Shown here in pieces: positions 11,723 through 47,675 of a DNA stretch of 64,000 bases (positions are counted from its first letter, which is position 1; each line of letters starts with the position of its first letter). The stretch comes from a bacterium (GTDB taxonomy: Bacteria; J088; JAWLBW01). The notes under the pieces were generated by a model, which had not been told where the DNA came from, ran no database searches, and saw only the letters and a list, made by a program, of their open reading frames with translations. Location of the stretch: assembly GCA_041687475.1 (NCBI GenBank), contig JAWLBW010000001.1:4703-68702 (forward strand). Reading direction: 5' to 3'. The translations under genes were made by a program, and so were the position numbers.

Positions 11723-11956
11723 GAGGTACCTCTCTGGAGTAAAGTATCCTTATAGCGGAAGAAGCGCCATCTTCGCAAGCGCCTGCCTACCGTAAGGTCG
11801 GTAATCAGGGGTCTGCTTGCCGGGCCCCCCGATACCCTAAGCGGAAACCAAAAAGTGCCCTTGTATCCGTTATTTATCCTGCCTGCCGCATTTGACACGG
11901 ACGCCCGCCCTTCGGTATTCTGAGTGCGTTTTCGCTCTCACGAAGGAACCCGGCAC

Positions 11957-19626: not shown

Positions 19627-19635
19627 TCTTTTCTC

Positions 19636-21318: not shown

Positions 21319-21412
21319 AACGGCCCGAACATTGTTGCAAGTACCCTGCGACCTGTCAACGATGGACCGCCAACCCACCGAAGCACTCGTTGCAGAGAAA
21401 ACCTATCGCAGA

Positions 21413-26812: not shown

Positions 26813-26842
26813 TAAGACAGTACTCCTTCTTATCCGATCTTC

Positions 26843-26871
26843 AATCTAATACCTGCCCATCGGCTTTGCAA
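26843..26871 (-). promoter_or_regulatory. Candidate sigma70-type promoter of lon
   Basis: On the minus strand: TTGCAA, then 17 nt, then TAGATT, about 25 nt upstream of the AAGGAG RBS and ATG. Not a sigma32 consensus. Confidence 0.25.
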
Positions 26872-27022
26872 GGATGATAGGCTCACTTTTCCCCTCGTGA
26901 CGGTCTTTTCGCCGATTTGGCCGAAAAACTCATCAAAAGCCCGTCCTTTCGCCGGTTTCGACGAGAACCCGCGCCACAACGGCGATTTGCCCGGATTCAC
27001 CCGCGCGTGATAGTTTGAGTGC

Positions 27023-27956: not shown

Positions 27957-30047
27957 TCACGCCGCAGGCTCCTCGTCGTCGGAACCATAATAGTACTGGT
28001 ACTGGTAGGCATATGCCCCGTCGGTGACGTCGAGGCCGTTCAGAACGACGCCCAGCACATTGGTGTCGACCTCGACCAGACGCCGCCGGGCTTCGGCCAC
28101 CAGGTCGCGGCTGACCTTGCCGGACTTGACCACGTATAGTACGCCGTCTACCTTTCGGCCGAGTACGATGGCATCGGTCACCGGAATCACCGGGGGACTG
28201 TCGAAGACCACCCGATCGAATTCCTGTTCGAGCATCTTGAGCACTTCGTCCATGCGGGCGCTCGTCAACAGTTCGCTGGGATTCGGCGGCAATGGACCGC
28301 TGGGAATGACCCACAGATTGGGTATGTCGGTGGGCAGCATGACCGATGCGACGTCGTTCGAACCCAGAAGAAGCGTCGAGAAGCCTGCGTCGTTACGAAG
28401 GCCGAAGGTCTTGTGCAGCCTGCTTCGGCGCAGATCGGCGTCGACCAGGACCACGCGCTGTCCGGCCTGGGCCAGGGTGATACCCAGGTTGCAGGTGGTC
28501 GTCGATTTGCCCTCGAGCGGGGTCGCACTCGTGACGATGAAGGAGTGCAGCGGTTTTTCAGCCCCCAGGAACATGAGGTTCGTACGGATCGAACGGCAGC
28601 TTTCGGCGATCGTGCTCTTTGGGTGAGTGTGCACGAACAGGTCACGGTCGGTCGATTCTTCGTTAGCGTCGGCCATGTCCGGAATGACGCCGAGTAGCGG
28701 CAGCTGAACGTGACGTTCGATATCTTCGGTAGTCTTGATCGTGTTGTCGACGTACTCGAAGAAGAAGGCAAGGCCGATACCTCCGACGAGTCCCACGAGA
28801 ACGGCCAGGGCCATGTTGACCTGCACCCGCGGCTTCACGGGCCGGCTGGGTTCGAGCGCGCTGTCGATGATGCGCAGGTTGTTGGCGCGCAGCGAGCTTG
28901 TGAGATCGGCCTCCTTCAGCCGACCGAGCAGAATGTCGTACAGCTGCTGGTTTTTTTCGGCATCTTGTTGAATGGCCATGTGGCTGATGAATTTCTTGTG
29001 CAACTCGAGGGCTTCCTGTTTGGCGGTTTCGAGCTCGGCGCCCAGCGAGTTTTCTTCGGCACGCTTGAGCACGTACTCGGTACGGGCCGCTTCCAGAATC
29101 TTGGTTATCTCGCCCTCGATGCGCTGATTCACGAAGGAAATCTGGTCGTGCAGTCGGCGCATTTTCGGATGCTCGGGCAGGTAACGGGCCGAAAGCTGGC
29201 TGTGTTCGCGTTGCATGTCGATGAGTTGCTGCTTGAGATTCTGCACGAGCTGGCTCGAAAGAACCTCGACCAGTGCCTCTCGGTCGGTACCCGCCCGCAC
29301 GAGGCGGTCAAGGCGCTTCCAGCGTGCTTCTACCTCGATGCGTTCGGCCCGGGCGCGTGAATAGGCGGTGTTCAGATCGACCAGCTTCTGCAGCATCAGG
29401 TTCTGCTTGTCGTCGAGCCCCACAAGCCTGTTCTTGTTCTTGAACTCGAACATCTTCTGCTCGCTTTCGACGACCTGGTTTTTCAATTCGGCCAATCGCT
29501 CGCTCAGCCAGTCAACCGCCTGCTTGGTAAGACTCAGGCGCTGTTCGAGGTTATCTTCGATATATACTTCGGCAATTGCGTTGGCCACCCGGGTGGCTTC
29601 GGCAGGATCCGGATGATTGTAGGAAATCTTGACCAGCTGGCTTTCCTTGATTGGTGTGACCTCCAGGTGCGCAAGGAAGTAGCCCGGAGTCATGGTGACC
29701 TCCTTACCCTCCTTGCCTTCCTGCTTGAGCCCGAGCCGATCGATAACCCGGCGTGCGATGTGGTTGCTCTGGATAATGCGGTTCTGGGTGTTGTAGTAGT
29801 CCTGGTACATGTAGTAGTTGCCCGAACCGAAATCGTCGATGGACTGAAAGTTCAGTACCTTCGGCGTATCGGGCAGAATGGCGATGGTCGTCGTCGCACG
29901 ATAGATCGGCGTCTGGCTCAGGGTACCGATGAGTACGACCGTAACCAGAACGACGAAGAAGGTGGCAACGACCCAGCGTCGCTTGCGAATGACCTCCCAG
30001 AGGTCCTTGAGATGAAATGCGTTCTGCTGTGTTCCTTCCTGGCCCAC
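27957..30047 (-). CDS. wzc: Polysaccharide co-polymerase/bacterial tyrosine autokinase (Wzc/BY-kinase family)
   Basis: Two TM segments flanking a long coiled-coil periplasmic domain. Walker A GKSTTT, A' VVLVDADLRR, B VVFDSPPV. Tyr-rich tail YAYQYQYYYG. Confidence 0.85.
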   Translation of the reverse strand: MGQEGTQQNAFHLKDLWEVIRKRRWVVATFFVVLVTVVLIGTLSQTPIYRATTTIAILPDTPKVLNFQSIDDFGSGNYYMYQDYYNTQNRIIQSNHIARRVIDRLGLKQEGKEGKEVTMTPGYFLAHLEVTPIKESQLVKISYNHPDPAEATRVANAIAEVYIEDNLEQRLSLTKQAVDWLSERLAELKNQVVESEQKMFEFKNKNRLVGLDDKQNLMLQKLVDLNTAYSRARAERIEVEARWKRLDRLVRAGTDREALVEVLSSQLVQNLKQQLIDMQREHSQLSARYLPEHPKMRRLHDQISFVNQRIEGEITKILEAARTEYVLKRAEENSLGAELETAKQEALELHKKFISHMAIQQDAEKNQQLYDILLGRLKEADLTSSLRANNLRIIDSALEPSRPVKPRVQVNMALAVLVGLVGGIGLAFFFEYVDNTIKTTEDIERHVQLPLLGVIPDMADANEESTDRDLFVHTHPKSTIAESCRSIRTNLMFLGAEKPLHSFIVTSATPLEGKSTTTCNLGITLAQAGQRVVLVDADLRRSRLHKTFGLRNDAGFSTLLLGSNDVASVMLPTDIPNLWVIPSGPLPPNPSELLTSARMDEVLKMLEQEFDRVVFDSPPVIPVTDAIVLGRKVDGVLYVVKSGKVSRDLVAEARRRLVEVDTNVLGVVLNGLDVTDGAYAYQYQYYYGSDDEEPAA

Positions 30048-30059: not shown

Positions 30060-30899
30060 TCAGAAGAAGCTTTGCGGAACTACGACGATATCTTCGGGCT
30101 GCAGGCGCAGGTCGCTTTCCTTGTTGTCGACGACCTTGCCCAGATTGATACGCATCTTGCGCTCTTTGCCGTTCTGCGAGCGTATTACCTGAACCTTGCC
30201 GTCGTTGGCCTTGTTGGTGAGACCTTCTGCCAGACTGACCGCCTGAAGAACGGTCAGGCCCTCGCGGTAGGGAACGACCCCCGGTTTTTTCACCTCGCCG
30301 TACACGTAGACGCCGTCGGAGCGCGGAACGAACAGAATGTCGCCGTCGCCCACGACGAGATTCAGGGTCGCTTCTCCGAAGCGCAGAAGTCGGTGGGCGT
30401 CAATGAGCACAGGTTCGGTTTCACTGGTGATGGCCGGGGGACCCGAGGTGCGATTTCCGCCCCGCACGAGAACAAGGCTCCGGGCCGCGTTCTCGAGAAC
30501 GCCACCGGCCTGCGAAACCAGATCGAGCACCGTGGTTCTACCGCTTAGCGAGTAGGGCCCGGGTTCCTTCACCATGCCGAGTACCACGGCCTTCCGGCTG
30601 CGGTATTCCTTGACCTGAACGAACACCTGCGGGTCGACGAGATAGCGCTCGGCCAACCGCGTGCGAATCAACTGCTCGATTTCGGCCGACGTATGTCCCG
30701 TGACCGCTACGGCCCCGATTAGAGGAAACCCGATGGTGCCGTTTTCGTGAACGACCGCTTCCTTGCTCAGGTCTTCTTCATCGAATACGCGAATTTCGAG
30801 CACGTCTCGTGCTCCGACCCGGTATTCGTCTGCCGCCTCGGAAATCGACGGCAACAGCATCAAGGCAATCAGGCTGCAGGTAAGCGCTATCAGTCGCAT
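30060..30899 (-). CDS. wza: Short outer-membrane polysaccharide export (OPX/Wza-family) protein lacking the C-terminal OM-spanning helix
   Basis: Signal peptide. Poly_export motif YRVGARDVLEIRVF...NGTIGFPLIG plus SLBB-like repeats. Only 279 aa, ending right after the last SLBB repeat. Confidence 0.8.
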   Translation of the reverse strand: MRLIALTCSLIALMLLPSISEAADEYRVGARDVLEIRVFDEEDLSKEAVVHENGTIGFPLIGAVAVTGHTSAEIEQLIRTRLAERYLVDPQVFVQVKEYRSRKAVVLGMVKEPGPYSLSGRTTVLDLVSQAGGVLENAARSLVLVRGGNRTSGPPAITSETEPVLIDAHRLLRFGEATLNLVVGDGDILFVPRSDGVYVYGEVKKPGVVPYREGLTVLQAVSLAEGLTNKANDGKVQVIRSQNGKERKMRINLGKVVDNKESDLRLQPEDIVVVPQSFF

Positions 30900-32161
30900 C
30901 AGAGCATTGCCTCCACTTCAAGAAAGACCTGATTGGTTTCGTAGCTGAACCAGTCGAAATCACTCTCGCGCTGCTCGCGGTTGTACCCGAGGTTTACCTT
31001 GAGCCAGTCTTCGCTTAGGGGCCGGAACTCTCCCTTTACCGAAGCGAGAAACCCCCAGTCGGTACGCGCATACGGCTCGGAATAGCGGTTGCTGAAGACA
31101 TTGCCGCCTACCGCCGCAGCCACGATGGGGGTGAAGGCGTGCCAGAATTCGGCGTAGCCCCGGTTGGAAACATAGTAGCTTGTGCTGTATGAATCGTAGA
31201 GTTCACGGGCGCCGCCGACGGTGAGGCGCGTGCGTTCACTGAATTTTTCGTTGAACTCCAGCTTGCCCAGCCAGGTGCTGGCGCGGGCGGCTGAGTTCTC
31301 GTAATCGAGGCGGCCCCACCCCAGGGCGAGAATGGCCGTCATGCGGCTCGTTACCGCACCCTGAGCGCCCAGCCAGGCTTTCCACCCGTCGGCGTCATTC
31401 TTCTGAATGGTCGAGGCGGCTTCCGAATCGAGATAACGAACGAAGTAGCCTTCACCCTCGACAAAAGCAGCCGTTTTGGGAAAGAAGCGATACGAAATGC
31501 GCCCGCGAGGGGCATGAATGTTCTTGTCGAGATACGTATAGGTCTGGGCCGAAAAACGCTCGCTGCTGAGTATGTAGCCGGCGTCGAACTGCAGGTTGCT
31601 GTCTTCCAGGTTATAGACGAGGGTCGGTTTGAATTCGTTGTGAACCAACCCGATGGGTCGGAGGTCGGCCTGCTCGTCGAAGGTGAGCTCGGTGGCCGTT
31701 ACGAAGAGGTTTTTTCGCACCAGATCGTCGCGCAGGCCAATACCGAAACCGTTGTTGAGCCGGAGGCTGAACTCGCCGAATACTTCGTGGTTGTTGAAGG
31801 TATCCCAGATGGTGGTATCGATGTTGCCATCGAAACCACCGGTGTATTTGACGCCCTGCCATGCATAGCCGGCTGACGCATGACTGTTCGTACCGAAAGG
31901 CAGGCGCAGGTTGAGCTGTGGGTTCAGCGTGAAGTAGATGTCTTCTACGGGGTCGACGCTGAAGCTGCCCGAGTCGTTTACCTTGAATACGTTGTCGTCG
32001 TAGATGGCCGAAAACGTGACCGATGGCCTTACCTCGACAGGTCCGGCCTGAAGCCGTGCCGGGCCGTCGGCCGCCTGGCTCGCGCCCGGAATAAGCGCTG
32101 CTAACAGCGCGCCTGCCGCGGCTGCAGTGATGATCCTGCTCACGATGTTCCCCCCAAACAA
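30899..32161 (-). CDS. Outer-membrane beta-barrel protein, candidate translocon partner of the short OPX
   Basis: Signal peptide IITAAAAGALLAALIPGASQA and alternating amphipathic beta-strand pattern rich in aromatic residues. It overlaps the wza start by 1 nt. Confidence 0.6.
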   Translation of the reverse strand: MFGGNIVSRIITAAAAGALLAALIPGASQAADGPARLQAGPVEVRPSVTFSAIYDDNVFKVNDSGSFSVDPVEDIYFTLNPQLNLRLPFGTNSHASAGYAWQGVKYTGGFDGNIDTTIWDTFNNHEVFGEFSLRLNNGFGIGLRDDLVRKNLFVTATELTFDEQADLRPIGLVHNEFKPTLVYNLEDSNLQFDAGYILSSERFSAQTYTYLDKNIHAPRGRISYRFFPKTAAFVEGEGYFVRYLDSEAASTIQKNDADGWKAWLGAQGAVTSRMTAILALGWGRLDYENSAARASTWLGKLEFNEKFSERTRLTVGGARELYDSYSTSYYVSNRGYAEFWHAFTPIVAAAVGGNVFSNRYSEPYARTDWGFLASVKGEFRPLSEDWLKVNLGYNREQRESDFDWFSYETNQVFLEVEAML

Positions 32162-32192: not shown

Positions 32193-32762
32193 TTAGCGCA
32201 CCGGCGTCGCCGGCTTTTTCGGCACGATATGATCGGCCGGTTTGTCCTTCGGCTCTACCGTTTCACCCGGTTCGATGTCGCCGTCGAGATTCTTTTCCGA
32301 GACCAGTTGTCCCGAATTGATGCGCACACAGGCGCGGGCCTGGGTAGCGAGATCGCGTACGCGTTCGGTCGCCGCCGACAGGGTTTTGGCCTCGATGTTC
32401 AGCGACTCGATATCGCCCGTGGGAATCGAAGACAGCCGCTTGGCGGCCTGACTGGCCGCATTGCGAAGATTCTGCGCCGGAACGAGCTTCTGCTCGACGC
32501 ACGAAGCGGCAAGGGAATCATTGCGTCGGCGGGCGTCGGTACGCAGCCGCGTCATGGACTCGATATGGCCGGCGATATTGTCGAGGTACTGTGTTTCTAC
32601 CTCCTGGATCCGACCCGCCAGGATCTGGCTCATCAGGGTTTCGACCCCACCAATGGCCGCCTGGGCCTGGTTCGGGTGCGCGTGCGTGAACCCGAGTTCG
32701 TGCGCGTGCGCGACACCGGGCGCAAGGCTTGCGGCCAGTATAAACATAAGCATCCGTGTCAT
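32193..32762 (-). CDS. Hypothetical secreted protein
   Basis: Signal peptide MTRMLMFILAASLAPGVAHA. His-rich HELGFTHAHPN, then a helical region. Confidence 0.45.
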   Translation of the reverse strand: MTRMLMFILAASLAPGVAHAHELGFTHAHPNQAQAAIGGVETLMSQILAGRIQEVETQYLDNIAGHIESMTRLRTDARRRNDSLAASCVEQKLVPAQNLRNAASQAAKRLSSIPTGDIESLNIEAKTLSAATERVRDLATQARACVRINSGQLVSEKNLDGDIEPGETVEPKDKPADHIVPKKPATPVR

Positions 32763-32874: not shown

Positions 32875-33135
32875 TCACTGCGCCGTCGACCGGGTGTCGC
32901 GTTCTGCCAGCTTTACGGCGTCTTTCACAATCTCGTCGAGCAGGGGCGAGCGCAGGCGTTCTACGCCGGGTGTCGGTGGCCCTTTCTGACTTCGCTCCAG
33001 GATGAACATGACCTCGGGCTTGTGAATCTCACCCTCGACGGCCAACTGATCCATACGTATGGTCTCTGCGGCCGCCGTAATGCCGAGGAGCGACAAAAAT
33101 GCCACTGCCAGTCCCAGGAAAATGGATAGACGCAT
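32875..33135 (-). CDS. Small hypothetical secreted protein (86 aa)
   Basis: Signal peptide MRLSIFLGLAVAFLSLLGITAAA. Sits within the operon. Confidence 0.4.
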   Translation of the reverse strand: MRLSIFLGLAVAFLSLLGITAAAETIRMDQLAVEGEIHKPEVMFILERSQKGPPTPGVERLRSPLLDEIVKDAVKLAERDTRSTAQ

Positions 33136-37500: not shown

Positions 37501-37696
37501 TGCGGCTTTGCGTGTGTTGCTTCGTCAGAACTGCGCCAATCTGCTTCTCGGCCGCATCAAGGTTACGCTCGGTAAGCAGCAATCTGAGCTCGGTTTCATC
37601 GTACGAAATCCGTGCCGAAGGTTCGTAGGCGGCGAGCCGTAGTGGCGGAGATGCCAGGAAAATCGCTACGCTCAAGAAGACACGGCGCACGATCAT
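34508..37696 (-). CDS. Large TPR-repeat protein (1062 aa), exported
   Basis: N-terminal signal/anchor MIVRRVFLSVAIFLASPPLRLAA. TPR-like repeats throughout (W/Y-L-G-A-Y-A spacing). ATGA overlap with the upstream gene. Confidence 0.65.
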   Translation of the reverse strand: MIVRRVFLSVAIFLASPPLRLAAYEPSARISYDETELRLLLTERNLDAAEKQIGAVLTKQHTQSRNAIEKRYEALRVPLETETAKQRRVAEARLESFVSNHADSPQVSEALLRLAVLQMESADQHYAEQMNRYLALPDETEKRQPRKNYGTALATLERLLAGKGGADNRAIAWYLKGYALQEMGEERRAVLAFEELLAESAESRLRAEILVRIGDYHFDRHRIASAARFYEAALAEEGPWMDRAIYKLAWSLYRQNAYAEAISTFTRLADMGRERPDLLNEAMQYLAISYVEGMGLSQALEDMENRGQRSYDDRLLRRIADIFYESTDFMSAVSAYTVAQARWPEAPENLRAAGRKVQSLHQMREKVTAVNERRRLATQFLPGSAWYAANATRATLREKADALVERYLFEYSTFHHEQWGDGNDASRKPAEEGYRLYLAHFPEHARAGQINFYLAELLYDRKAYADALSHYTLVARTAPDPTTGIAHTAAYNSVLAARRLYEQNPTNIDRLVEVSRQYADLLPTDENTPRVLYHAGHELCRQGLEDACRGSLSAMIESYPYSPLVLDAIRTVIDSYAKEERYGDLADWADRLLERGLPADKVARRYVLDMVGGAMFREAHAKDRLGDAEEAATRYLAVYRRYPATPAGVAALFNAAYNYEKAGHTIKALDLYASILERHGKEKFASRAAFRRGHILQNALDHRRAIAAYALVVEKYPRSEEAADALFNVASLSGLIGEHRQAARFFEQHWNNYGRSATEASDTLLRAAVQWEAAGETAQAVERYKSFAASRSDDKKAPFAAYSAAMLVKGGEQKRLLQQAVALENRLRDQGEPDLWTAGAARFALAELERERYRAIVLPRNMDRLASILENKATRLKNLQASYTRVVEAGHPHWAVAALFRIGEAYAHFAESLFSAPTPDGLSSEEAEIYKFELEEKALPVEDKAFEAWNLALERAGDLKMENEWTGRIRAALSTQPSRVRLLTDGLSPHLLAAKDKGHEPVPMIAAVRTSSEEVAADGLDGNMVGTKRLRGLLGKVLREQHTFFHDDDLVFRTAEGREALQ

Positions 37697-40269
37697 TGCT
37701 TTCCTCCCTCGACTGCGATACCGAATGCCGGCGCCCCCTGGTCATCGGTTTTCAGGTCCAGCCGATAGCGGCGACCACGTACGAATTCGTAATACAACGA
37801 CCCGGCCACCCGCACTTCTTCGGCTCCGTCGTCGAAGACGAGTAGAATGTTGACCGTGTGTGGACCAGGTTGGAGGAACGTCGCCTCTGCGACCCCTCGC
37901 TCTACTGTGAGGGGGCGGTGGTCTACCGTTATCCGCGCTCCCGTGAGATTGCCCCAGGGTGCATCTGCAGGCGCGTAAAAACGGAGGGCGGTTGCGTCGT
38001 GCCTGGCCATGTCGCGGTCCATCTCCAGTGCATTCCGGAGATGTCGGTTCAGGCGGGCCTGAAAAATGCGCTGTTCCGACAGGGCCTGCGCCTGTGCCGA
38101 TGCGCGTCGATCGGCGGCCTCGATGCGGGGTTGCAGTCGAGACGGCGCTTCCGTTTCGCCCGAAACGGAAGCAGGACTCCGTATGGCGGCCTGAAGCTCA
38201 CGGTGTGTCTCGCCAATCGCCTCCAGGTCATTCTGCTCGAGTGCCGAGAGGGCCCTTACCCGCTCGACCGACTGTTCGCGTGCCTTCCAGGCTACGTCTA
38301 CGCTGCCGAGTTTGGCGTCGGCCACAAGACTACCGACCGCATCGTTGATGGCGAGCGCGGCGGCCAGAGTCATTTCGCCTCGAAGTTCCTGCGCATCGAC
38401 GGAGAGCGTGGCGGCCTGCCCACGCATTTCCTGCAGTTCGGCATACATTCTGACGACATGCGGGCGCATCTGCTCGGCCGATGCACGACGCCGGGTCTCG
38501 AGAGTGGCCCGGACCGCTCCCAACTCATAGTGCGCACTCTGCAGCTGGTTGTGCAGTTTACGCAGACCGGCTATTTGGGCCCGGCTGTACGCCTGTTCGA
38601 GAACATCGAGCAGGGTGCCGATTACCTGCATCGAACTACCCGCCAGCGCGCGCCGAGCATCGTTGATTCGCACTTCGTTGCTGTCCATCTGTGAGAATAT
38701 GGCATTGACGGCATCGGCGGCAGGCATGCCGTCTCGACCGGAACGGCCGGTTTCCATGGTCAGGGCCTGCATGTATCGACTTCCTTCGGCGTATTGCAGA
38801 AGATGGATCAGGTCGCGCCGCTTCTCGGTCGTTTTCTCGCCCAGATGCGCCAGCTCGGCTCGCTGGATGTCGAGGTCGGACAACAAGGTCAATGCCTCCT
38901 GGAATCGCAGTGCATCGCGACCGCCCAGCCTTGCTCCGAGCCGTTTGGCGGTGCGCACCAATTCGCTCTCCATGCCGGACACCGAGCGGGAAAGCTCTTG
39001 CTGACGCGCCAGTAGACGTTGCGCGCTCTTCGGCTCACCCCAGGTGTTTTCGGCAAGGAGCTGCACGGCGTGCAATGTCGTCATAACGTCGAAGAGCTGC
39101 CGGTTCAGGTTGTCCATGCCGCGAACGAGTCTGTCGGCTTCCTGAACCTGCGGCTGCTCACGCAGCCAGGCCAGCAGTTCGATGTCCTGCCGTGCCTCTT
39201 CCGAAAAGTCTCCCGTGAGGTTGTCGAGCAGCATGTCGTAGATTTCGGCCGGCCGTTCGTGGGCCTGCAGATCGACAATGCGGTCGTTCACGGCTCCGTA
39301 GTGGGCGATGTAGGACGCGAATCTCTGTTGTGCCTGGGTGAAGGCTTCACCCTCGAGCAGAAGGTACCCATACAGAAGGCGTGCCTTCGGCAGAAGTCGG
39401 CTGAGCGGTCTGTCGAGCGCGAGCCGCAGTAGTTGTGTCTGGGCTCTTTCCGTCTCGCCGCGTGCCAGTTCGACCCATGCTCCTTCGTAAAGCGCACGAT
39501 CGTAGTAGGGAGATTTTTCTTCAAGAGTCGAGTACCACGCATGGGCCTGAGCGTAATCGCCCGCTTTGAAATACAGCCTGCCCAGAGCCAATACCGAAAG
39601 GTCGAAGAGGTCTGAATTGGGTGCGGTTTTTTGGGTAACCGTCGTGAAACGGTCTGCGGCGGCTTGCGCCGATCCGTCGAGCAGGGCTAAAACGCCCAGG
39701 AAGTATTCGGCTTCGGCATCGGCATCGGCGCTGGCCAGCTCGGCGAATACGGTCTGGGCATGTTCCGTCGCACCGTGGGAAAAAGCGGTACGGGCTGCCT
39801 CCAGAAGAAGGGAGCGCTCCGTTTCGTCGGTGGCCTGCCTGCGATACGCAGCCAACGCTTCGAATGCCGGTTCGATTCTTCCGGTGCGCAGTTCGAGCCT
39901 CGTCAGTGCCGCCAGGGCCTGGAGCCTGAGGGGGCCACTTGCGAGCGACAGGTCTTCGAGCAGTCTTCGGGCGCTGCCGTAAAGGCCGCTTTCGAGGTAG
40001 GCCTGCGCAAGCGTCCAGCGGGCAGTTTCTCCGGTGGCCGTTCCGGCGTAGGTAGATTCCCGCAACACGTTCAGCAGCGGCGCGATGGCCTGCACGGGTT
40101 CTCCGCCGGCGAGGTAGCTTCGCGCAAGACGAATCTGGTCATCGCCGTAATATGGTGGCGGAGCAGCCTTCGTGTGCCCCGGGAACACGAGTACTCCAGC
40201 CAGTGAGATGGCGACGGCAGCCAGAAAGTATGTCACTCTTTGCCTTCGCGACATGCTGCATCTCCACAT
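37693..40269 (-). CDS. TPR plus long coiled-coil plus C-terminal beta-domain protein (858 aa)
   Basis: N-terminal TM/signal. About 350 aa of TPR, then about 350 aa of heptad-rich Q/E/R/A/L sequence. The last ~100 aa are beta-rich with LQPGPHTVNILLVF...YRLDL. Confidence 0.6.
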   Translation of the reverse strand: MWRCSMSRRQRVTYFLAAVAISLAGVLVFPGHTKAAPPPYYGDDQIRLARSYLAGGEPVQAIAPLLNVLRESTYAGTATGETARWTLAQAYLESGLYGSARRLLEDLSLASGPLRLQALAALTRLELRTGRIEPAFEALAAYRRQATDETERSLLLEAARTAFSHGATEHAQTVFAELASADADAEAEYFLGVLALLDGSAQAAADRFTTVTQKTAPNSDLFDLSVLALGRLYFKAGDYAQAHAWYSTLEEKSPYYDRALYEGAWVELARGETERAQTQLLRLALDRPLSRLLPKARLLYGYLLLEGEAFTQAQQRFASYIAHYGAVNDRIVDLQAHERPAEIYDMLLDNLTGDFSEEARQDIELLAWLREQPQVQEADRLVRGMDNLNRQLFDVMTTLHAVQLLAENTWGEPKSAQRLLARQQELSRSVSGMESELVRTAKRLGARLGGRDALRFQEALTLLSDLDIQRAELAHLGEKTTEKRRDLIHLLQYAEGSRYMQALTMETGRSGRDGMPAADAVNAIFSQMDSNEVRINDARRALAGSSMQVIGTLLDVLEQAYSRAQIAGLRKLHNQLQSAHYELGAVRATLETRRRASAEQMRPHVVRMYAELQEMRGQAATLSVDAQELRGEMTLAAALAINDAVGSLVADAKLGSVDVAWKAREQSVERVRALSALEQNDLEAIGETHRELQAAIRSPASVSGETEAPSRLQPRIEAADRRASAQAQALSEQRIFQARLNRHLRNALEMDRDMARHDATALRFYAPADAPWGNLTGARITVDHRPLTVERGVAEATFLQPGPHTVNILLVFDDGAEEVRVAGSLYYEFVRGRRYRLDLKTDDQGAPAFGIAVEGGKQ

Positions 40270-40272
40270 GGG

Positions 40273-40953
40273 TCACTGCACCGCAAACCTGAGAACGGGG
40301 CGTTCCCGCAGGTTCTTGCTTCCGCCCTGATCGACGGCTTCGACGCTCAGTTCGACCGCTTTTCCGCGGGGCGTCGAAAAGTGATACTGGCTTCGCATGT
40401 CGAAAGAGTACTGTTCCATATAGGTGAAGACGCCGTAACCGGTGGCCCTGAGGGTGTAGATGGCGTCAATGGTATGGTTACCGGGTAGCACGCTCGCATC
40501 GAAAACGACGAACTGTGGGTTGGCGCCGATACGCTTGGGGTCGTTGTTCGTGTATACGGTAAAGCCGTCAAGCTTGTATTCGATGCTTTCGATTTCGAAG
40601 GCGCCGCCGAGTTGGTTGTCGTGCACGATCAGAAGTTTGGTGCCCGTGACGAAACCCTGAGAGATGTCTTCTCCCAGGGTCAGAATTCGGCTCTTCAAAT
40701 CCTGAATCTGGCCCTGCAGGGCATGCATGCGCTCTTCGACGTTTTCGAGTCTGGGATGCGAGTCTCGTTTCTTCACGCTCTCGCCCAGCTCGGAACTGAC
40801 CCTGACATTCTCCAGCCCGGCCGTTTCAGGATCGCTCGTCGACGTGACGCCCGCAGAGTGCGGCTCGGCGCGGGCGCTGTCGGGAATACGGGCTCCAAGG
40901 CTCAGGAGAACGGCAAGAACGGCCAGAATGAAAATGCTACGGCTGAAAGTCAT
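40273..40953 (-). CDS. Membrane-anchored coiled-coil protein whose C-terminal beta-domain is related to that of the 858 aa protein
   Basis: TM anchor MTFSRSIFILAVLAVLLSLG. Coiled coil ENVEERMHALQGQIQDLKSRIL. C-terminal LPGNHTIDAIYTL...YHFST. First gene of the operon. Confidence 0.5.
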   Translation of the reverse strand: MTFSRSIFILAVLAVLLSLGARIPDSARAEPHSAGVTSTSDPETAGLENVRVSSELGESVKKRDSHPRLENVEERMHALQGQIQDLKSRILTLGEDISQGFVTGTKLLIVHDNQLGGAFEIESIEYKLDGFTVYTNNDPKRIGANPQFVVFDASVLPGNHTIDAIYTLRATGYGVFTYMEQYSFDMRSQYHFSTPRGKAVELSVEAVDQGGSKNLRERPVLRFAVQ

Positions 40954-41099
40954 GAATCCCCCCCAGAGACTAACCCGGCGGCCACCCATAAGGCAGCCAC
41001 ACACTCTCCAGCTTACGCCCGGCTTGCCGTTTCGTCAATAACTTGACCGATGACGGGGCGTCGTTTTAAGCTGGCTGAAGATAAGACTTTGGAGGAAGC

Positions 41100-42047
41100 A
41101 TGCATCTGGTAACAGGCGGGGCGGGATTCATAGGCTCGCATCTGGTAGAGGCGCTCCTGAAGGAAGGAAAGCGGGTCAGGGTGGTCGACAACTTCTCCAG
41201 CGGTCGTGTCGAGAACCTGCGGCCTTTCCTCAAGGACATTGAATTGCTGACAGGCGACGTTTCCGATGAAAGCGCGGCACGTGCGGCGGCTAAGGGAGTC
41301 GAGGTGGTGTTTCACCAGGCGGCTCTGCCCTCGGTACCTCGGTCCATTCAGCAACCCGTGGCTTCGCACCAGGCCAATGCCACCGGCACGCTGCAGATGC
41401 TGCAGGCCGCAACGCAGGCCGGGGTACGGCGTTTCGTCTATGCAGCCAGCTCGTCGGCCTACGGCGACACGCCCACGCTTCCGAAAATCGAAACCATGCC
41501 GCCCCGGCCCCGCTCGCCCTATGTGGCCGCCAAGCTTACGGGCGAACTCTACTGCCAGTCCTATTATCATGTGCACGGTCTGGAAACAGTCTGCCTGCGC
41601 TACTTCAACATCTTCGGGCCGAGACAAGATCCGGAATCGCCTTATGCCGCCGTAATTCCGCGTTTTCTCGAAGCTCTGCTGTCGGGGCACTCACCCGTCA
41701 TCTTCGGCGACGGAAACCAGACGCGTGATTTCACCTTTATCGAAAATGCCGTCCAGGCCAACCTGCGGGCGGCCGAAGCCGAAGGGGTTGGCGGAGAGGT
41801 ATTCAACGTCGCATGCGGAAAGCGGGTGTCATTGAACCACTTGCTCGAAATGCTTCAGGTTGAAACCGGCGTTCGCATCTCGGCCACCTTCGGCGAGCCG
41901 CGCCCGGGCGACGTTCGAGACTCCCTGGCTTCGATCGACAAGGCCCGCGAAAGGTTGGGCTACCGGCCTTCCATTGATGTCAAAGAAGGCATTGCCCGCA
42001 CGGTTGCGTGGTTCACGCAGACCACGGGGCTGCGCAGGGCTGCTTGA
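41100..42047 (+). CDS. NAD-dependent sugar epimerase/dehydratase (UDP-hexose 4-epimerase-like)
   Basis: GGAGFIGSHL Rossmann motif, catalytic S..YxxxK (YVAAK), 315 aa. Confidence 0.8.
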   Translation: MHLVTGGAGFIGSHLVEALLKEGKRVRVVDNFSSGRVENLRPFLKDIELLTGDVSDESAARAAAKGVEVVFHQAALPSVPRSIQQPVASHQANATGTLQMLQAATQAGVRRFVYAASSSAYGDTPTLPKIETMPPRPRSPYVAAKLTGELYCQSYYHVHGLETVCLRYFNIFGPRQDPESPYAAVIPRFLEALLSGHSPVIFGDGNQTRDFTFIENAVQANLRAAEAEGVGGEVFNVACGKRVSLNHLLEMLQVETGVRISATFGEPRPGDVRDSLASIDKARERLGYRPSIDVKEGIARTVAWFTQTTGLRRAA

Positions 42048-42071
42048 GGCCTTGCCTTTCGACTCGGAGTC

Positions 42072-42108
42072 AATCCGGCCGCCGGGATAGCCCGGGGCCG
42101 GATTTTCA
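42072..42108. terminator. GC-rich hairpin between the convergent epimerase and MshEN genes
   Basis: AATCCGGCCGCCGGG-atag-CCCGGGGCCGGATT followed by TTT. Confidence 0.4.
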
Positions 42109-43128
42109 GGCTTGAACGGCGGCCTTCATCGGGTAATGACGCTCGATGAGGGTACGCACGATGGCGCGGGGGCTCACAATAGGCATGATGTTGTAGCCGC
42201 TTTCCCTGCCCGCGACCTGGGAGACGAGCCTGTTTTCCGGGTCGGCCGTGAGTACGAGCAGGTTGCCTTCGTGAATCGCCAGCGGAAGAATGAGCAGTTT
42301 ACGCGCCGTGCCCGGAAGAATCAGCTTCAGAATGTCCGGTGAAACCGCGATCGGGTGATACGGATCAACAGTCGCGCACTGTGCATGACGGCTGAGGTAA
42401 CGCGACACCGTTCTCGCGTCGATAAGGTTGTCTTCCATCAGCGCTTCGCCTACATGCATGCGAGGGTGCTTCGCCCGGGCGTTTTCGATCTCGGCCTGGG
42501 TGACCAGGCCATCTTCGATCAGCATGTCGCCGAGACGTTCGGCACTCGAGCCCTTGCGCCGACGCACGTACGCGAGGGTGATGCCTCCGGCGGTGAAGAG
42601 AATCAGGTCGCGGCCGACCTCATCCTTGAACCCTTCAAGAAAAGGCCGTTCCTCGACCTTGGAGGGGTCGACATGGTTCGAGAAGAAGTCGGTCGGAACC
42701 TGCAGAAGATCGCGGCGATACTGGTGATACAGCGACTCGGGAAGAATGCGCACAATGACTTCCTTGCGCATCAGGTCGGCAACGTCGCTGACGGTTGAGG
42801 CCTGAGGAAGGTCCATCGCGCCGATCAGAAGCCGCTTGGGAGACGCCGCTATGGGCACGATGTTCTTCTGCAGGGCAAACTGACGGGGAAACATGGCGAC
42901 TACGTTGAGTCGGGCGTTGATTTCCTCACCCATGCGCAGCAGGGGCAAGCCATGAGCGCGATTCAGAAGGTTTGCCAGCGTATAGCGGCTGATCACACCC
43001 ATGTCGAACAGGTGGGTTCCAAGGCGTCCGCCGATTTCGCGCTGACGGGCAAGGGCCTGTTGAAGAACATCATCGGTAATGAGGTTCTGTGAGAGAAGCC
43101 GTTCTCCGGTTTTCAACGCGTATCCCAT
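42106..43128 (-). CDS. Protein built from tandem GspE-N/MshEN-type modules, a putative c-di-GMP receptor
   Basis: Residues 6-58: KTGERLLSQNLITDDVLQQALARQ, REIGG, then RLGTHLFDMGVISRYTLANLLNRA (24+5+24). A second, more degenerate module follows at 198-248 (RLGDMLIEDGLVTQAEIENARAKH ... HVGEALMEDNLIDARTVSRYLSRH). Confidence 0.6.
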   Translation of the reverse strand: MGYALKTGERLLSQNLITDDVLQQALARQREIGGRLGTHLFDMGVISRYTLANLLNRAHGLPLLRMGEEINARLNVVAMFPRQFALQKNIVPIAASPKRLLIGAMDLPQASTVSDVADLMRKEVIVRILPESLYHQYRRDLLQVPTDFFSNHVDPSKVEERPFLEGFKDEVGRDLILFTAGGITLAYVRRRKGSSAERLGDMLIEDGLVTQAEIENARAKHPRMHVGEALMEDNLIDARTVSRYLSRHAQCATVDPYHPIAVSPDILKLILPGTARKLLILPLAIHEGNLLVLTADPENRLVSQVAGRESGYNIMPIVSPRAIVRTLIERHYPMKAAVQA

Positions 43129-43146
43129 TCCTAACCTCCCCTGTTC

Positions 43147-43908
43147 TTACCTTGCCGTCTGGCCGCCGTCGATGAGCAGGACTTCACCGGTCATGTAGTC
43201 GCTTGCCTGCGAGGCGAGGTAAACTGCAAGAGGGCCGAGTTCCGCGTCGCGCCCGAACCTTCTGGCCGGAATCTTTCGCAGCATCGCCGTTGAAACGGCT
43301 TCGCTTTCCCGACCCTCTGCCGTCATCTCGGTTTCAAAGTAGCCTGGTGCGATGGCGTTTACCTGAATGTTATACCTGGCCCATTCAATTGCCAAGGTAC
43401 GGGTGAGTTGAATCAGGCCGCCTTTGGTGGCACAGTAGGCGGCGAGTCCGGGCTCGCCCACGGTTCCGAACATCGAGGCGACCTGAATGATCTTGCCCCT
43501 GCCTGCCTGGCGCATCGGCTTGAATGCCGCCTGGCTGAAAAGGAACGGAGCCGTCAGATTGACTCCGAGGGTGCGTTCCCATTCTGTAAGAGGCATTTCA
43601 TGCGAGGGTGCGGTTACCGCAATTCCCGCATTATTGACGAGAACGTCCAGGGCCCCGAAGGCTTGAAGACAGGCTGAAACCGCCTTCTCAGGAAAAGACG
43701 TATCGGCGACGTCTCCGGTCACAAATTCGGCGGTGCTACCCCGTGCGCGTATTTCCCGGGCCGTTTCCTCGAGCCCCTCGCTGCTCCGGGCGACAAGAAA
43801 AAGGCGGGCGCCCGCTTCGGCAAGGGAAAGGGCCATGCTTTTTCCGAGACCGCGGCTGGCCCCGGTAACAAGCGCCGTCTTACCCGATAAATCGATTGTA
43901 AAAGCCAT
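43147..43908 (-). CDS. Short-chain dehydrogenase/reductase (KduD/FabG-like)
   Basis: TGASRGLGKS glycine motif, NNAG, catalytic YxxxK (YCATK). Confidence 0.75.
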   Translation of the reverse strand: MAFTIDLSGKTALVTGASRGLGKSMALSLAEAGARLFLVARSSEGLEETAREIRARGSTAEFVTGDVADTSFPEKAVSACLQAFGALDVLVNNAGIAVTAPSHEMPLTEWERTLGVNLTAPFLFSQAAFKPMRQAGRGKIIQVASMFGTVGEPGLAAYCATKGGLIQLTRTLAIEWARYNIQVNAIAPGYFETEMTAEGRESEAVSTAMLRKIPARRFGRDAELGPLAVYLASQASDYMTGEVLLIDGGQTAR

Positions 43909-43954
43909 CGACGAGAGTATAGCCGAAAGCAGGAGCGGGTGAAACCCGAGCGGG

Positions 43955-44347
43955 TCAGTTCGAAGCCGGCTCGGCCTCGGCAAGGTGGCGCCGAATCGTA
44001 GCAAGGAACTGATCGATGTCGATGGGCTTGGTTACGTAGTCGTTGGCGCCGCAGGCGAGTCCCGCCTCAATTTCTTCCGGACTGTTGCGTACGGATACGA
44101 AAACGACGGGTATGCGACGATATTCGGGGTGCGCCTTGATGGCCTTGCAGAGTTCGTAGCCGTCGACCCAGGGCAGCATGATGTCGAGCAGAATCAGGTC
44201 GGGACGGTCGACGCGTATGCGCGAGATGAGCTTGATGCCGTTGGCGGCCGTAAGCACGTCGTATTGCTCACTCTCGAGGGTGGCCCGCAGAAATTCGCGC
44301 ACGTCCGGGTCGTCTTCGACCAGCAATATTTTTTTGGGGTTCGACAT
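43955..44347 (-). CDS. Stand-alone response-regulator receiver domain protein
   Basis: 130 aa REC domain: acidic pocket LLVEDD, phospho-acceptor LILLDIMLP, S/T FVSV, K in VTKP. ATG at 44347 verified. Confidence 0.75.
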   Translation of the reverse strand: MSNPKKILLVEDDPDVREFLRATLESEQYDVLTAANGIKLISRIRVDRPDLILLDIMLPWVDGYELCKAIKAHPEYRRIPVVFVSVRNSPEEIEAGLACGANDYVTKPIDIDQFLATIRRHLAEAEPASN

Positions 44348-44631
44348 TATCCTGCAATCTGCCCTGACGAAAGATAGAACAACATAGTCTCTGCCTTTCC
44401 CTTTGTCAACCGGAATCGCCGAAACCTCGACGGCGATGCCGATGAAGGCTGTTGTATTCCGCCCCGCAAGCGGGTAGAATTCACCTGCAGAGACGATACC
44501 TCGGGCAATCGGGCCCGGCTGCCCGGCGGGCAGGTGCAAGGGGGCCGGGCGGCCATGAGCGCAATGGGGTCATCGTCACTCGTCAGTACCCTATAATGCA
44601 CTTAGGTGGGGAAACCCGCAGGAGACGACCG

Positions 44632-45180
44632 ATGGAATGGGTCATGCTCGCAATCATCGCTTTCGGTGTCATCGCCGTGGTTGTCATGTACAACCGCCTG
44701 GTGGCAGCTCGGAATCAGGTGCGGAATCTCTGGCGTCAGATTGATGTGCAGCTCAAGCGACGCTACGACCTGATTCCCAATCTGGTCAACGCCGTTCGCG
44801 ACGTCATGTCATTCGAGCAGGACACGCTTACGCAGGTCATCGAAGCGCGCGGCAAGGCGGTGCAGGCCCGGAACCCGGGCGAAAAGGCGCAAGCCGATTC
44901 GTTGGTGACCCAGGCCCTCGGAAGTCTGCTTGCGGTGGTAGAACGGTATCCCGAACTCAAGAGCCATCAGAACGTGCAGCAACTGACGGCCGAACTCTCG
45001 ACCACGGAAAACCTCATTGCAGGCGTACGGGTGCAATACAACAACGCGGTGCGCGATTACACGAACATGCGTGAGGTTGTTCCCTCGAACTTCGTGGCCG
45101 CCCTCTTCAAGTTCGAGCCCGAAGCCTACTTCGAGGCAAGTGAACAGGATAAAGCGACGCCGAGAGTGGCTCTGCGCTGA
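44632..45180 (+). CDS. lemA: LemA-family membrane protein
   Basis: N-terminal TM followed by LemA pattern YNRLV..RNQV...W.QIDVQLKRRYDLIPNLV. Confidence 0.75.
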   Translation: MEWVMLAIIAFGVIAVVVMYNRLVAARNQVRNLWRQIDVQLKRRYDLIPNLVNAVRDVMSFEQDTLTQVIEARGKAVQARNPGEKAQADSLVTQALGSLLAVVERYPELKSHQNVQQLTAELSTTENLIAGVRVQYNNAVRDYTNMREVVPSNFVAALFKFEPEAYFEASEQDKATPRVALR

Positions 45181-45237
45181 GTTTCGCGCCGTTCGCACCC
45201 CGCCCTGGCCTTACAGGACTACGGGTAGCGACATCGA

Positions 45238-45924
45238 ATGATTGAATCGGGGCTGGGTGAACTCTATGAGTTCTGGGGTATTGTCGTCTCGACACTTTTG
45301 CTGGGCATCGGACGCCTGCACGGTCAGAAATCGAGCGGCAACGGCGAAGCCGATGAAGATGCCCTGCTGGTCGAGCGGGCGCGAGAGGGCGATCAGTATG
45401 CGTTCGACCGCCTGATACATAAGTACCAGAGCCGTATCTATCAGTTCTGCTATCGCATGCTGAGCGATCCTGATGAAGCCGAAGAGCTGACGCAGGACGT
45501 CTTCGTCAAGCTGTATCGCAACCTCAAGCGATTCCGGTACGAGTCCAAGTTCAGCACCTGGCTCTTTCAGATTGCCAAGAACCTCACTCTCAATAAGCTT
45601 AAATACCTGAAGCGCAGGCACTTTTTCGCCAACCAGAGTCTCGATGAACCTCGCCGAACCGGCGACGGCGAAATCAGGTTCGAGGTGGCCGACGAAACCT
45701 GCGATCTCGAGGCGGCTTATGAAAACCTCGAGTTGCAGCAGCTGGTACAGACAAAAATCGCACAGTTGCGGCCCGAGCACAGGGTCGCACTGGTCCTTCG
45801 CGACATGGAGGGCCTGCGCTATGATGAGATAGCGCGAATCCTCAACCTTGCCGAGGGTACGGTCAAGAGCCGGATTCACCGGGCGCGCCTCGAGCTACGC
45901 GACAGCCTCGAAGGGCACATTTAG
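45238..45924 (+). CDS. ECF-type RNA polymerase sigma factor
   Basis: Region 2 (LTQDVFVKLYRNLKRF) and region 4 HTH (LRDMEGLRYDEIARILNLAEGTVKSRIHRAR). The true start may be downstream of 45238. Confidence 0.75.
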   Translation: MIESGLGELYEFWGIVVSTLLLGIGRLHGQKSSGNGEADEDALLVERAREGDQYAFDRLIHKYQSRIYQFCYRMLSDPDEAEELTQDVFVKLYRNLKRFRYESKFSTWLFQIAKNLTLNKLKYLKRRHFFANQSLDEPRRTGDGEIRFEVADETCDLEAAYENLELQQLVQTKIAQLRPEHRVALVLRDMEGLRYDEIARILNLAEGTVKSRIHRARLELRDSLEGHI

Positions 45925-45936
45925 GGAGGAGTCGGA

Positions 45937-46620
45937 GTGGATTGCCGAACCGTTCGGGAAATCTTTTTCGAGCAGCTGGACGACCCTGCCGCCTCTCGCC
46001 CCGCGCTTGCCGCTCATCTGCAGCGCTGTGCGGGCTGTCGCCGTGAGTGGGAAGCTTACCGGCAAACCGTGAAGCTTCTCGGCCGGATACCTGCTCCTGC
46101 CTTGTCGCGCGATCTCAGCGATGGGATACACCAGAGACTTAGCGCGACGACGCCCCTGCGAGAGCTGCTTCGTCCCCTGCATGCGGGAATTCTCGCCGCC
46201 GCGGGGCTGGCTGTTATTCTGCTCCTGGTTGCGCTGCCTCTTCCGGGCGAGGGGCTCGTGTCTGTCTGGCCCAGGGCCTTCGTCGACCGCGATGCCGACG
46301 TGACGGTTCTCGCCGACCCGTCTTCCGACGTTTTCTCTCTCGTTACGTGGAAGCCGGTGGCTTCACGGAAAGAGCTCCTGGCCGAATTGGGCGCTGACCG
46401 CCTGGAATCGTGGCCGAAGCAGGCGGGCGAACTCGATGCATGGCCCGCCCTGCTTCTCGTTCCGGTAGAGGGCGCCGGTGGGTTGCCTGATGCTGCAGAA
46501 ACCGCGTTTCTCATGGCAATGGCCCGGAGTCTGTTTCAGGCAGACGGCAACAGGGTGATGGTCGGCGATGCCGAAACGGGAGCCGAAGACGGTGTGCGGC
46601 TTTACGGGCTTGCTTATTGA
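45937..46620 (+). CDS. Putative anti-sigma factor (zf-HC2 type, single TM)
   Basis: GTG start 9 nt after the sigma factor stop. HLQRCAGCRREW zinc-finger-like motif and TM helix GILAAAGLAVILLLVAL. Confidence 0.55.
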   Translation: MDCRTVREIFFEQLDDPAASRPALAAHLQRCAGCRREWEAYRQTVKLLGRIPAPALSRDLSDGIHQRLSATTPLRELLRPLHAGILAAAGLAVILLLVALPLPGEGLVSVWPRAFVDRDADVTVLADPSSDVFSLVTWKPVASRKELLAELGADRLESWPKQAGELDAWPALLLVPVEGAGGLPDAAETAFLMAMARSLFQADGNRVMVGDAETGAEDGVRLYGLAY

Positions 46621-47675
46621 CTGAGGGCCGAGCGACGGGCGGTATCGGCAAGATCGCGCAGCATGCGCCGGACCACGACCTGCCCGTTGCCTTCATAGGC
46701 CGTAAACCGAACGGTACTGGCGTCGTCTGCGCTTCCAACCCACTCGCCGCGAATCTGAACGACGCCGTACTCGTTCGGCAGCATCAGTTTCAGATGCACG
46801 GGGGTGCCGGGTTCGGGCTTGCGTGCCGGAACGAAGCGCAGGCGTGCGCCCAGGGCGTGCAGGCTGGCAAGACGGGTTTGAAACTCACCCTGGCCGCCGA
46901 TTCGAATCGTCGCCGGCAGAGCCAGGCTCAGCGTCAACGGGTTCTCGGCGATATCTTCGATGAGTGTCTGCAGCGTCTGGGTTGATACCGGGCGCTCGAG
47001 TACTTTGTTGGCGCCTGCCCTGAGAAACTTCTCGGAAAGGTGGGCATCGTCGGCCGAAAGCAGGGCGATGGCCTGGGTTGCCTTGAGCCGCCCCACTTTC
47101 TTGAGCTGTTCGAGCAGGCCGAGGTCGCGCGGGTTACCGTCGAGCATGACGATTTCCGGCAGTTCGAGACGGCAGGTTTCGAGCAGATTGGCCGCGCTTA
47201 CCGAGCGAACGGCAAAAACCCCGTTGTCGAGCAGACGTGCAAGCGCGCCGGCTTCTTCTTCGTCCAGCGCCGTAACGACGAGCAGGCGTGCGGGCAGCAT
47301 GTTCGTGGTGCGAATGACGATGCGAAAACGTGTGTCGCCCGCCTGAAAACTGTCGCCGTCTTTCATGTTGGCCACGGTGACCCAGCGACCGCGGAAAATC
47401 GTGCCGTTGGCGCTTGCCAGATCGTGCAGCACGACACCGCCGCGCACCACTTCGACCTGGAAGTGCTTCCGGCTCATCGTCGGATCTTCGACGACCACGT
47501 CGGCGTCGCCGCGACCGAAAATGGTGCGCCGACGCTGGAGCGTCACGATTTCCTGGCGCCCGGCATGCTGCACGACCACCTGCACGTCGATTTCCTGCGG
47601 CAGGGTATCGAGGTCGGGGCGTGCTGCTTTCAGGGCAGTGGTATAGTCACCGGCCATAAGTTCGTATTCTACCAA
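46614..47675 (-). CDS. FHA domain plus receiver-like domain protein with an uncharacterised C-terminal domain
   Basis: FHA signature TIFGRGDADVVVEDPTMSRKHFQV...ASANGT. The middle segment is REC-like (LLVVTALDEEE...IVMLD...ALLSADD...K). Confidence 0.6.
   Translation of the reverse strand: MVEYELMAGDYTTALKAARPDLDTLPQEIDVQVVVQHAGRQEIVTLQRRRTIFGRGDADVVVEDPTMSRKHFQVEVVRGGVVLHDLASANGTIFRGRWVTVANMKDGDSFQAGDTRFRIVIRTTNMLPARLLVVTALDEEEAGALARLLDNGVFAVRSVSAANLLETCRLELPEIVMLDGNPRDLGLLEQLKKVGRLKATQAIALLSADDAHLSEKFLRAGANKVLERPVSTQTLQTLIEDIAENPLTLSLALPATIRIGGQGEFQTRLASLHALGARLRFVPARKPEPGTPVHLKLMLPNEYGVVQIRGEWVGSADDASTVRFTAYEGNGQVVVRRMLRDLADTARRSALSQ

Follow-up and report, generated by a model that had tools for sequence, protein, structure and literature searches.

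A Glt-like periplasmic gene cassette placed with class-3-type polysaccharide exporter genes, and a beta-sandwich tail probably copied from the neighbouring gene

Why should two adjacent genes, one for a small and one for a large secreted protein, end in what looks like the same beta-rich module, and what machine would the two proteins belong to? The question is raised by a nine-gene envelope operon on the minus strand of a 64,000-nucleotide stretch of bacterial DNA (GenBank assembly GCA_041687475.1, contig JAWLBW010000001.1, positions 4,703 to 68,702; GTDB lineage Bacteria; J088; JAWLBW01), which is referred to here as the window. Its first two genes encode a 243-residue protein (g1) and an 858-residue tetratricopeptide repeat (TPR) protein (g2). 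Both open reading frames (ORFs) lie on the minus strand where an earlier reading of this DNA made without database searches (the sequence-only reading) had located them, and the peptides it had quoted are present. All products of the operon begin with an N-terminal signal sequence or, in the polysaccharide co-polymerase (PCP), with a membrane segment. The reading that we favour, with a probability of roughly 60%, is that a periplasmic scaffold resembling the Glt core of Myxococcus has here been rewired to a class-3-type polysaccharide exporter, the tail of g2 probably having been copied from the gene upstream of it.

The beta-sandwich domains of g1 and g2

In g1, a signal peptide and a disordered spacer lead to a coiled coil, and the protein ends in an eight-stranded beta-sandwich. 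Based on the upstream sequence, the likely start is the methionine at residue 18 (position 40953), which lies 3' of a ribosome-binding-like GGGGGG run, and the hydrophobic stretch that follows consists of a 15-residue h-region and then ARA, with EP after the predicted cleavage site. This stretch is more likely to be a cleavable signal peptide than the membrane anchor for which it had been taken from the letters alone. An AlphaFold 2 (AF2) model of g1, computed from 15 sequences, consists of a helix at residues 20-36, a disordered region, a second helix at residues 85-115 and the eight-stranded sandwich at residues 122-242, with an LPGNH turn between strands 4 and 5, after the strand at 164-172. 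Residues 85-125 reach a heptad a/d score of 0.95, against a 95th percentile of 0.725 for shuffled sequences, and the coiled coil amounts to four to five heptads. Weak coiled-coil-type matches to this helix were found in both Pfam and the PDB, and two homologues of g1 gave weak matches to the Pfam model TolA_bind_tri.

The second protein, g2, is composed of a signal peptide (with the site between TKA and AP), TPR repeats at residues ~45-330 and a long helical region at ~340-695, which holds a conserved VDVAW motif at residues 657-661. Beyond this region, in the window's clade, the protein is extended by about 165 residues. The GltC-like proteins of five more distant loci (L008-L012) and of P0019 stop 35-40 residues past the corresponding (V/I)D(V/I)AW motif and have no beta domain; judged from these sequences, the tail of linker, helix and sandwich appears as a gain specific to the window's clade. 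AF2 applied to the last 144 residues of g2, with an alignment of three sequences and a pLDDT (predicted local distance difference test) of about 75, returned a helix of 42 residues and then a sandwich that spans tail residues 46-139 (residues 760-853 of g2), in which an LQPGPH turn stands between strands 4 and 5, after the strand at 79-85 of the tail model. The sequence-only reading had described a coiled coil followed by a beta domain of about 90 residues in both proteins. The coiled coil holds for g1, whereas the helix at 716-757 that precedes the sandwich of g2 shows no clear heptad pattern when scored against shuffles in the same way, heptad segments elsewhere in g2 being only borderline and lying between 374 and 639. 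The domain size, in turn, holds for g2 (about 95 residues), whereas the domain of g1 spans about 120.

Profile comparisons indicate that the two beta domains are very probably homologous, in agreement with the earlier suggestion of paralogous C-terminal modules. When an alignment of the 15 close homologues of g1 was compared with one of seven orthologous g2 tails, hhalign returned a probability of 46-53%; with a profile of 171 family domains in place of the former, it returned 94.7% (E 6e-8, score 48.6 over 75 columns), pairing residues ~131-224 of g1 with residues 769-842 of g2. Column-shuffled controls (n = 100) had a mean score of 11.6 (standard deviation 2.4, maximum 19.1), a reversed-alignment control scored 11.8, and seven other 120-column windows of g2 scored at most 13.2. 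A profile from which the window's own clade was left out gave 94.8% against the tails. Reciprocally, a profile hidden Markov model (HMM) built from the seven tails alone detected 57 of 162 family proteins at E <= 0.01, while the reversed control detected none. The separate AF2 models of g1 and of the g2 tail have strands whose lengths and order correspond one to one. An aspartate three residues after the histidine of the shared turn (H+3) is present in 14 of 15 g1 proteins of the clade, in six of the seven tails and in nine of 156 distant family domains, and this shared residue therefore points to the tail as a copy of the neighbouring gene's module. Used as a query for further homologues, the seven-tail alignment found nothing, its 8000 candidates probably having been swamped by low-complexity helical words; a scan of a genome collection yielded one related locus, and a metagenome scan yielded none. 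Sequence searches of the PDB found no relative of the beta domain, returning coiled-coil and TPR noise only, and Foldseek against the PDB gave no match below E 0.01.

The domain of g1 belongs to a large family that is so far unnamed in domain libraries: an exhaustive profile search collected 979 clusters (50% identity) at E <= 1e-3 and 556 at E <= 1e-10, and no Pfam or NCBIfam model matches it. Members are mostly 210-350 residues long, with the domain at the C-terminus. The PGxH turn is nearly invariant (P in 138, G in 150 and H in 152 of 156 domains), and its G and H are invariant in all seven tails. Two proteins carry tandem copies of the domain, five in P0020 and three in P0021, with no heptad coiled coil between the repeats, and the domain can therefore be regarded as autonomous and modular. 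In one of the distant loci (L011, a Myxococcota metagenome-assembled genome, positions 9230-12589), two family genes stand in a row before the GltC-like gene, the pair consisting of a canonical 249-residue member (207 bits) and an 862-residue protein with five tandem beta domains.

The scaffold and exporter genes of the operon

Genes of the g1 family were found immediately upstream of a GltC-like gene in 12 of 12 related loci, followed by GltD-like, GltE-like and CglF/GltF-like genes. Seven of these loci (L001-L007) are close and have the same gene order as the window. The five distant ones begin with one or two family genes, followed, often with a 4-nucleotide overlap, by the GltC-like gene, so that their TPR series reads 753-817, then 1118-1439, then usually 450-570 residues, after which a protein of 73-103 residues is encoded; the next genes in line are MotA/ExbB, ExbD and ExbD. 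In the window, g3 overlaps g2, and g4 overlaps g3, by 4 nucleotides each. BLASTP connects the window's proteins with their positional counterparts, with E values of 1e-30 to 1e-35 for g1, of 4e-11 to 4e-20 for g2 against the second gene of L008-L010, of 7e-50 to 1e-79 over the full length of g3 against the third gene of the same loci, and of 1e-8 to 7e-5 for g4, while g5 aligns with the fifth gene of eight other loci through an IEGxIQKPEV motif. In NCBIfam, GltC is the top match of the second gene of L008 and L009 (76-78 bits), GltE covers their fourth gene in full (94-121 bits), and the fifth gene of L008 weakly matches CglF (23.7 bits), all below the curated cutoffs; GltE is the top match in L009, and in L008 its 94 bits stand just behind PrsT at 95. 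No GltD model was among the NCBIfam matches; g3 matched tol_pal_ybgF with 99 bits in four stretches.

The combination of this cassette with MotA/ExbB and two ExbD genes in the distant loci matches the type of the Agl/Glt core complex, which consists of GltC, GltD, GltE, GltG and AglRQS and occurs in many non-gliding bacteria, where its function has been open since 2011 (PMC3169522). The same paper mentions an additional gene of the complex, for which g1 would be a candidate. According to a structural model, GltC lies under the outer-membrane barrels, GltD forms a central pillar to which GltE binds, and GltF acts as a bridge (PMC11761067). The window resembles this system in having, in the same order, a GltC-like protein of ~800 residues, a GltD-like protein of ~1100 residues, a GltE-like TPR lipoprotein and a small CglF/GltF-like protein, in that all products are secreted and the genes translationally coupled, and in that loci related to the window continue with MotA/ExbB and two ExbD genes. 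It differs from it as follows: a porin, an outer membrane polysaccharide export (OPX) protein and a PCP stand in place of the motor and GltG; the operon starts with a g1-family gene, which is unnamed in the available Glt literature; and the GltC-like protein carries the extra beta-sandwich tail. In the window's clade the operon is without motor genes, and in all four loci with enough sequence the 189-residue protein, the porin, the OPX protein and the PCP are encoded instead. The 189-residue protein is kept in L001-L003, is clade-specific and occupies the position that MotA/ExbB has in the distant loci. In L012, the contig with the core-type cluster also carries, immediately upstream of it, a second Glt/Nfs-like gene set (positions 1857-9113) that encodes TPR proteins of 1215 and 387 residues, proteins of 86 and 471 residues and an outer-membrane beta-barrel.

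The CpoB/YbgF protein of the Tol-Pal system, with its N-terminal trimeric coiled coil followed by TPR, offers a further comparison. Like it, the operon pairs a periplasmic coiled coil with YbgF-type TPR, although here the two are on separate proteins and the coiled coil carries a beta-sandwich, and the matches that underlie the comparison are weak.

The exporter genes follow the cassette in L001-L003 as they do in the window, where the BBP2_2 porin gene is directly upstream of the OPX gene and the gene for the Wzz/GNVR/AAA_31 protein directly downstream of it. The Pfam domains of the OPX protein end at residue 274 of 279, leaving no C-terminal membrane helix (D4); its sequence matches in the PDB cover the Wza domains D1-D3 and stop before D4, and that to 9n9a_A runs through to the C-terminus, which reads ...VVVPQSFF. 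Proteins of the class-3 OPX type act with a porin and a PCP, and how the polymer reaches the porin across the wide periplasm is unexplained (PMC9603273, PMC12819527). In Myxococcus xanthus, WzaB ends in two Phe residues, which are oriented toward the outer membrane (PMC12819527). The window compares with the class-3 systems WzaB-WzpB-WzcB and WzaS/ExoA-WzpS/ExoB (PMC9603273, PMC9601211, PMC12819527) in having an OPX protein with two terminal Phe residues and without an outer-membrane helix, whose gene adjoins those of a beta-barrel porin and of a PCP-2a with a fused kinase. It differs from these systems in that the exporter genes belong to the same operon as g1 and four Glt-like scaffold genes, in that the OPX protein has three domains (Poly_export and two SLBB) where WzaB has two, and in that it shows no lipobox, whereas WzaB has one. 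A paper on the class-3 OPX mechanism, searched for TPR and Glt partners, names none (PMC12819527).

A parallel to the window operon may exist in M. xanthus itself. This species has the Glt-like paralogous clusters G3 (Nfs), G4 (MXAN_1919-1923) and G5, among which the uncharacterised G4 encodes products of 447, 91, 490, 1111 and 809 residues. The genes wzpB and wzaB, the latter described as an orphan 1 Mbp away from the rest of its pathway, are MXAN_1916 and MXAN_1915, which by locus tags puts G4 three genes from wzpB/wzaB. No discussion of MXAN_1917-1924 was found in the literature searched.

Table 1. Features of the operon in the window (positions are those of the 64,000-nucleotide stretch)
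Feature	Positions	Strand	Basis or remark
g1, small secreted protein	40273-41004	minus	243-aa ORF; first gene of operon
g1 predicted Sec signal peptide, residues 18-46, MTFSRSIFILAVLAVLLSLGARIPDSARA followed by EP	40867-40953	minus	sequence reading; cleavage inferred
g1 coiled-coil helix, residues 85-115	40660-40752	minus	AF2 helix; heptad signal reaches ~125
g1 C-terminal eight-stranded beta-sandwich, residues 122-242	40279-40641	minus	AF2 pLDDT 86-95 and alignment
g2, GltC-like periplasmic protein, 858 aa	37693-40269	minus	Pfam TPR matches; NCBIfam GltC 30 bits
g2 C-terminal extension, residues ~696-858	37696-38184	minus	Pro/Ser-rich linker, helix 716-757, beta-sandwich
g2 tail beta-sandwich, residues 760-853	37711-37992	minus	AF2 model; probably a divergent copy of the g1 domain
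g3, GltD-like TPR protein, 1062 aa	34508-37696	minus	several YbgF/CpoB-type TPR units
g4, GltE-like TPR lipoprotein, 457 aa	33138-34511	minus	lipobox LAAAGC
g5, 86-aa secreted CglF/GltF-like protein	32875-33135	minus	found by translation
189-aa secreted, mostly helical protein	32193-32762	minus	no Pfam/NCBIfam match
Outer-membrane beta-barrel porin, BBP2_2	30899-32161	minus	Pfam PF10082, E 5e-11
OPX protein (Wza-like), 279 aa	30060-30899	minus	Pfam Poly_export and two SLBB
PCP-2a-type co-polymerase with fused tyrosine-kinase-type ATPase	27957-30047	minus	Pfam Wzz, GNVR, AAA_31

Upstream of the operon, positions 41100-47675 encode an epimerase/dehydratase, an MshEN-domain protein, an SDR protein, a response regulator, LemA, an extracytoplasmic function (ECF) sigma factor accompanied by a probable anti-sigma factor, and an FHA protein. 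A large part of the set is found again in L003-L007, which suggests either shared regulation or simply closely related genomes. On the plus strand, between the PCP gene and lon, a DUF4388-domain protein (a domain that we take to be PATAN) is encoded at 27023-27793. A 236-residue ORF at 26830-27540 was rejected as a gene, its translation being Arg/Ser-rich nonsense and the opposite strand encoding the DUF4388 protein. Further away, at 17335-21378 on the minus strand, three consecutive ORFs (763, 296 and 271 residues) with coding-like GC content at third codon positions had no Pfam match at E <= 0.01.

Alternative explanations

Could the similarity of the two domains be convergent, unrelated small beta-sandwiches having independently acquired a PG-x-H turn and alternating strand patterns without any paralogy? 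The pairwise similarity that the sequence-only reading called for is not there at the level of primary sequence, with a BLASTP E of 0.5 between g1 and g2 (21% identity over 165 residues, not significant) and 11-14% identity between the beta domains, although the strand order shared by the two models is. The family profile HMM scores single tails at 0.6-9.6 bits, the fold neighbours of the domain are generic, and shuffles of whole blocks that keep the motif intact reach 40.5 (8 columns) and 44.8 (12 columns). Nonetheless, the real score lies above every one of 220 shuffles, and with the six PGxH columns masked it is still 28.8 over the same 75 columns, against the background of 11.6 ± 2.4; the PGxH block therefore supplies ~40% of the profile score, and the rest, which is collinear, exceeds the background as well. 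In five of the seven tails, the strongest HMM match lies at the corresponding position. Together with the reciprocal detection, the clade-specific Asp and the proneness of the domain to duplication in these loci (tandem repeats, doubled genes), this makes convergence quite unlikely. The more specific proposal that both tails are PEGA-type surface domains on coiled coils, through which g1 and g2 form a hetero-oligomeric stalk, we regard as very unlikely. The fold of the PEGA clan is a transthyretin-like beta-sandwich. In favour of the proposal, PEGA and the g1-family domain are both small all-beta envelope domains with a loose 'DG ... G-H-x-hydrophobic' pattern, the succession of '...vDG...' and 'L.PG.H.v.v' aligns with VDG and L..G.H.L.V of one PEGA domain, and g1 does have a true heptad coiled coil. 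Against this, the Pfam PEGA model (PF08308) matched neither g1, g2 nor any of 25 family members scanned, the 15 close homologues staying unmatched with E values up to 10 allowed, and nine distant members giving no match within their g1-family domain. P0121 carries a true PEGA domain (residues 339-400, 43 bits) and, beside it as a separate unit, a g1-family domain (424-588), and hhalign comparisons with this PEGA segment gave 14.5 and 17.6, within the shuffle background, with the G-H motif landing on PGxH. The g1-family domain is also larger (~120 residues and eight strands, compared with ~70 model positions), and the helix before the g2 domain lacks clear heptads. Because there is neither a model match nor an hhalign score above background, the resemblance is at the motif level only, and on these results and the architecture of P0121 membership in PEGA was rejected. 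A hetero-oligomeric g1-g2 stalk as such would be plausible, its one indirect support being the constant place of the g1-family gene right before the GltC-like gene, often with a 4-nucleotide overlap.

A different objection concerns the TPR proteins, which might be ordinary exopolysaccharide scaffolds of the AlgK/PelB/BcsC/PgaA or PEP-CTERM PrsT kind, unrelated to Glt, with the shared domain as an incidental accessory. It draws on the best NCBIfam match of g4, which is PrsT (70 bits), on the porin, OPX protein and PCP with which the operon ends in place of a motor, and on the low scores of the window proteins with Glt models. However, the PrsT match is far below its cutoff of 312 bits and covers TPR repeats only, and the window showed neither an exosortase nor a PEP-CTERM gene; a PEP-CTERM/PrsT system was rejected on the partial match and the lack of an exosortase there. 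Moreover, g1-g5 are collinear with motor-bearing loci, BLASTP links each gene to its counterpart, and the corresponding genes of those loci have GltC, CglF and, in L009, GltE as their top NCBIfam matches. We therefore consider ordinary exopolysaccharide scaffolds an unlikely explanation. The same collinearity of a secreted, translationally coupled envelope operon with GltC/GltD/GltE/CglF-like clusters upholds the earlier view that these are not ordinary TPR chaperones.

Several observations nevertheless weigh against a Glt-like scaffold rewired to an exporter, in addition to the low pairwise identity of the domains and the share of a single motif in their profile score. The NCBIfam scores of the window's proteins are far under the cutoffs, at 30 bits for GltC in g2 (cutoff 450) and 48 bits for GltE in g4 (cutoff 225). 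No motor gene (MotA/ExbB, ExbD) is present in the window's operon or in L001-L003, and no TonB-like GltG was found in the operon with Pfam or NCBIfam. Among the window ORFs scanned there was no Wzx, Wzy or glycosyltransferase, the sole sugar-related neighbour of the operon being the nucleotide-sugar epimerase/dehydratase; by analogy with the split biosurfactant polysaccharide (BPS) pathway of M. xanthus, these genes may lie elsewhere. The shallow alignment behind the tail model limits the structural comparison, in which strand order was compared without direct superposition. The tail and the exporter genes are linked in a single clade and therefore represent one evolutionary event, we infer a physical interaction of g1 with g2 from gene order alone, and the adjacency of G4 and wzaB/wzpB, which comes from locus-tag numbers in papers and not from sequence, serves as a lead only.

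A proposed scaffold for polymer export

In the window's clade, the gain of the tail coincides with the replacement of motor genes by exporter genes. Under the reading that we favour, the tail would have arisen as a copy of the C-terminal module encoded by the g1 gene next to it. Protein g1 would oligomerise via its coiled coil and may associate with the GltC-like protein, while the four TPR/scaffold proteins would form a periplasmic frame of the kind modelled for GltC/D/E/F in Myxococcus. This frame would hold or position the porin-OPX-PCP polysaccharide conduit, and both beta-sandwiches could serve as docking modules that bind each other, the outer-membrane porin/OPX protein or the polymer. 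In Myxococcus, Nfs, a paralogue of Glt, works with the Exo exporter on the spore coat, and this partnership would be a functional precedent for a link between scaffold and exporter.

A wider proposition can be put forward only tentatively, and we hold it to be possible rather than probable: the g1/GltC/GltD/GltE/GltF-like cassette may be a general periplasmic scaffold that moves polymers across the envelope, which in the window's clade would have become hard-wired to a class-3 OPX-porin-PCP system, bridging a periplasm that the short OPX protein cannot span, with the PGxH sandwiches docking at the outer-membrane end. If this were true, polysaccharide export would be the function of the Glt core complex apart from motility, and that of G4 in M. 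xanthus, and gliding and spore-coat assembly would be later specialisations.

A family of ~980 clusters that has no model, and of which a member precedes the GltC-like gene in 12 of 12 loci, merits naming and should be included in models of these machines. The operon also points to a neighbour relation in a model organism that has gone unexamined, that of G4 beside wzaB/wzpB. The link between scaffold and exporter, if it holds, raises the interest of the locus further: by joining Glt-like and class-3 OPX gene sets, the operon provides a concrete, testable connection between the two and hints at a role for the scaffold other than motility.

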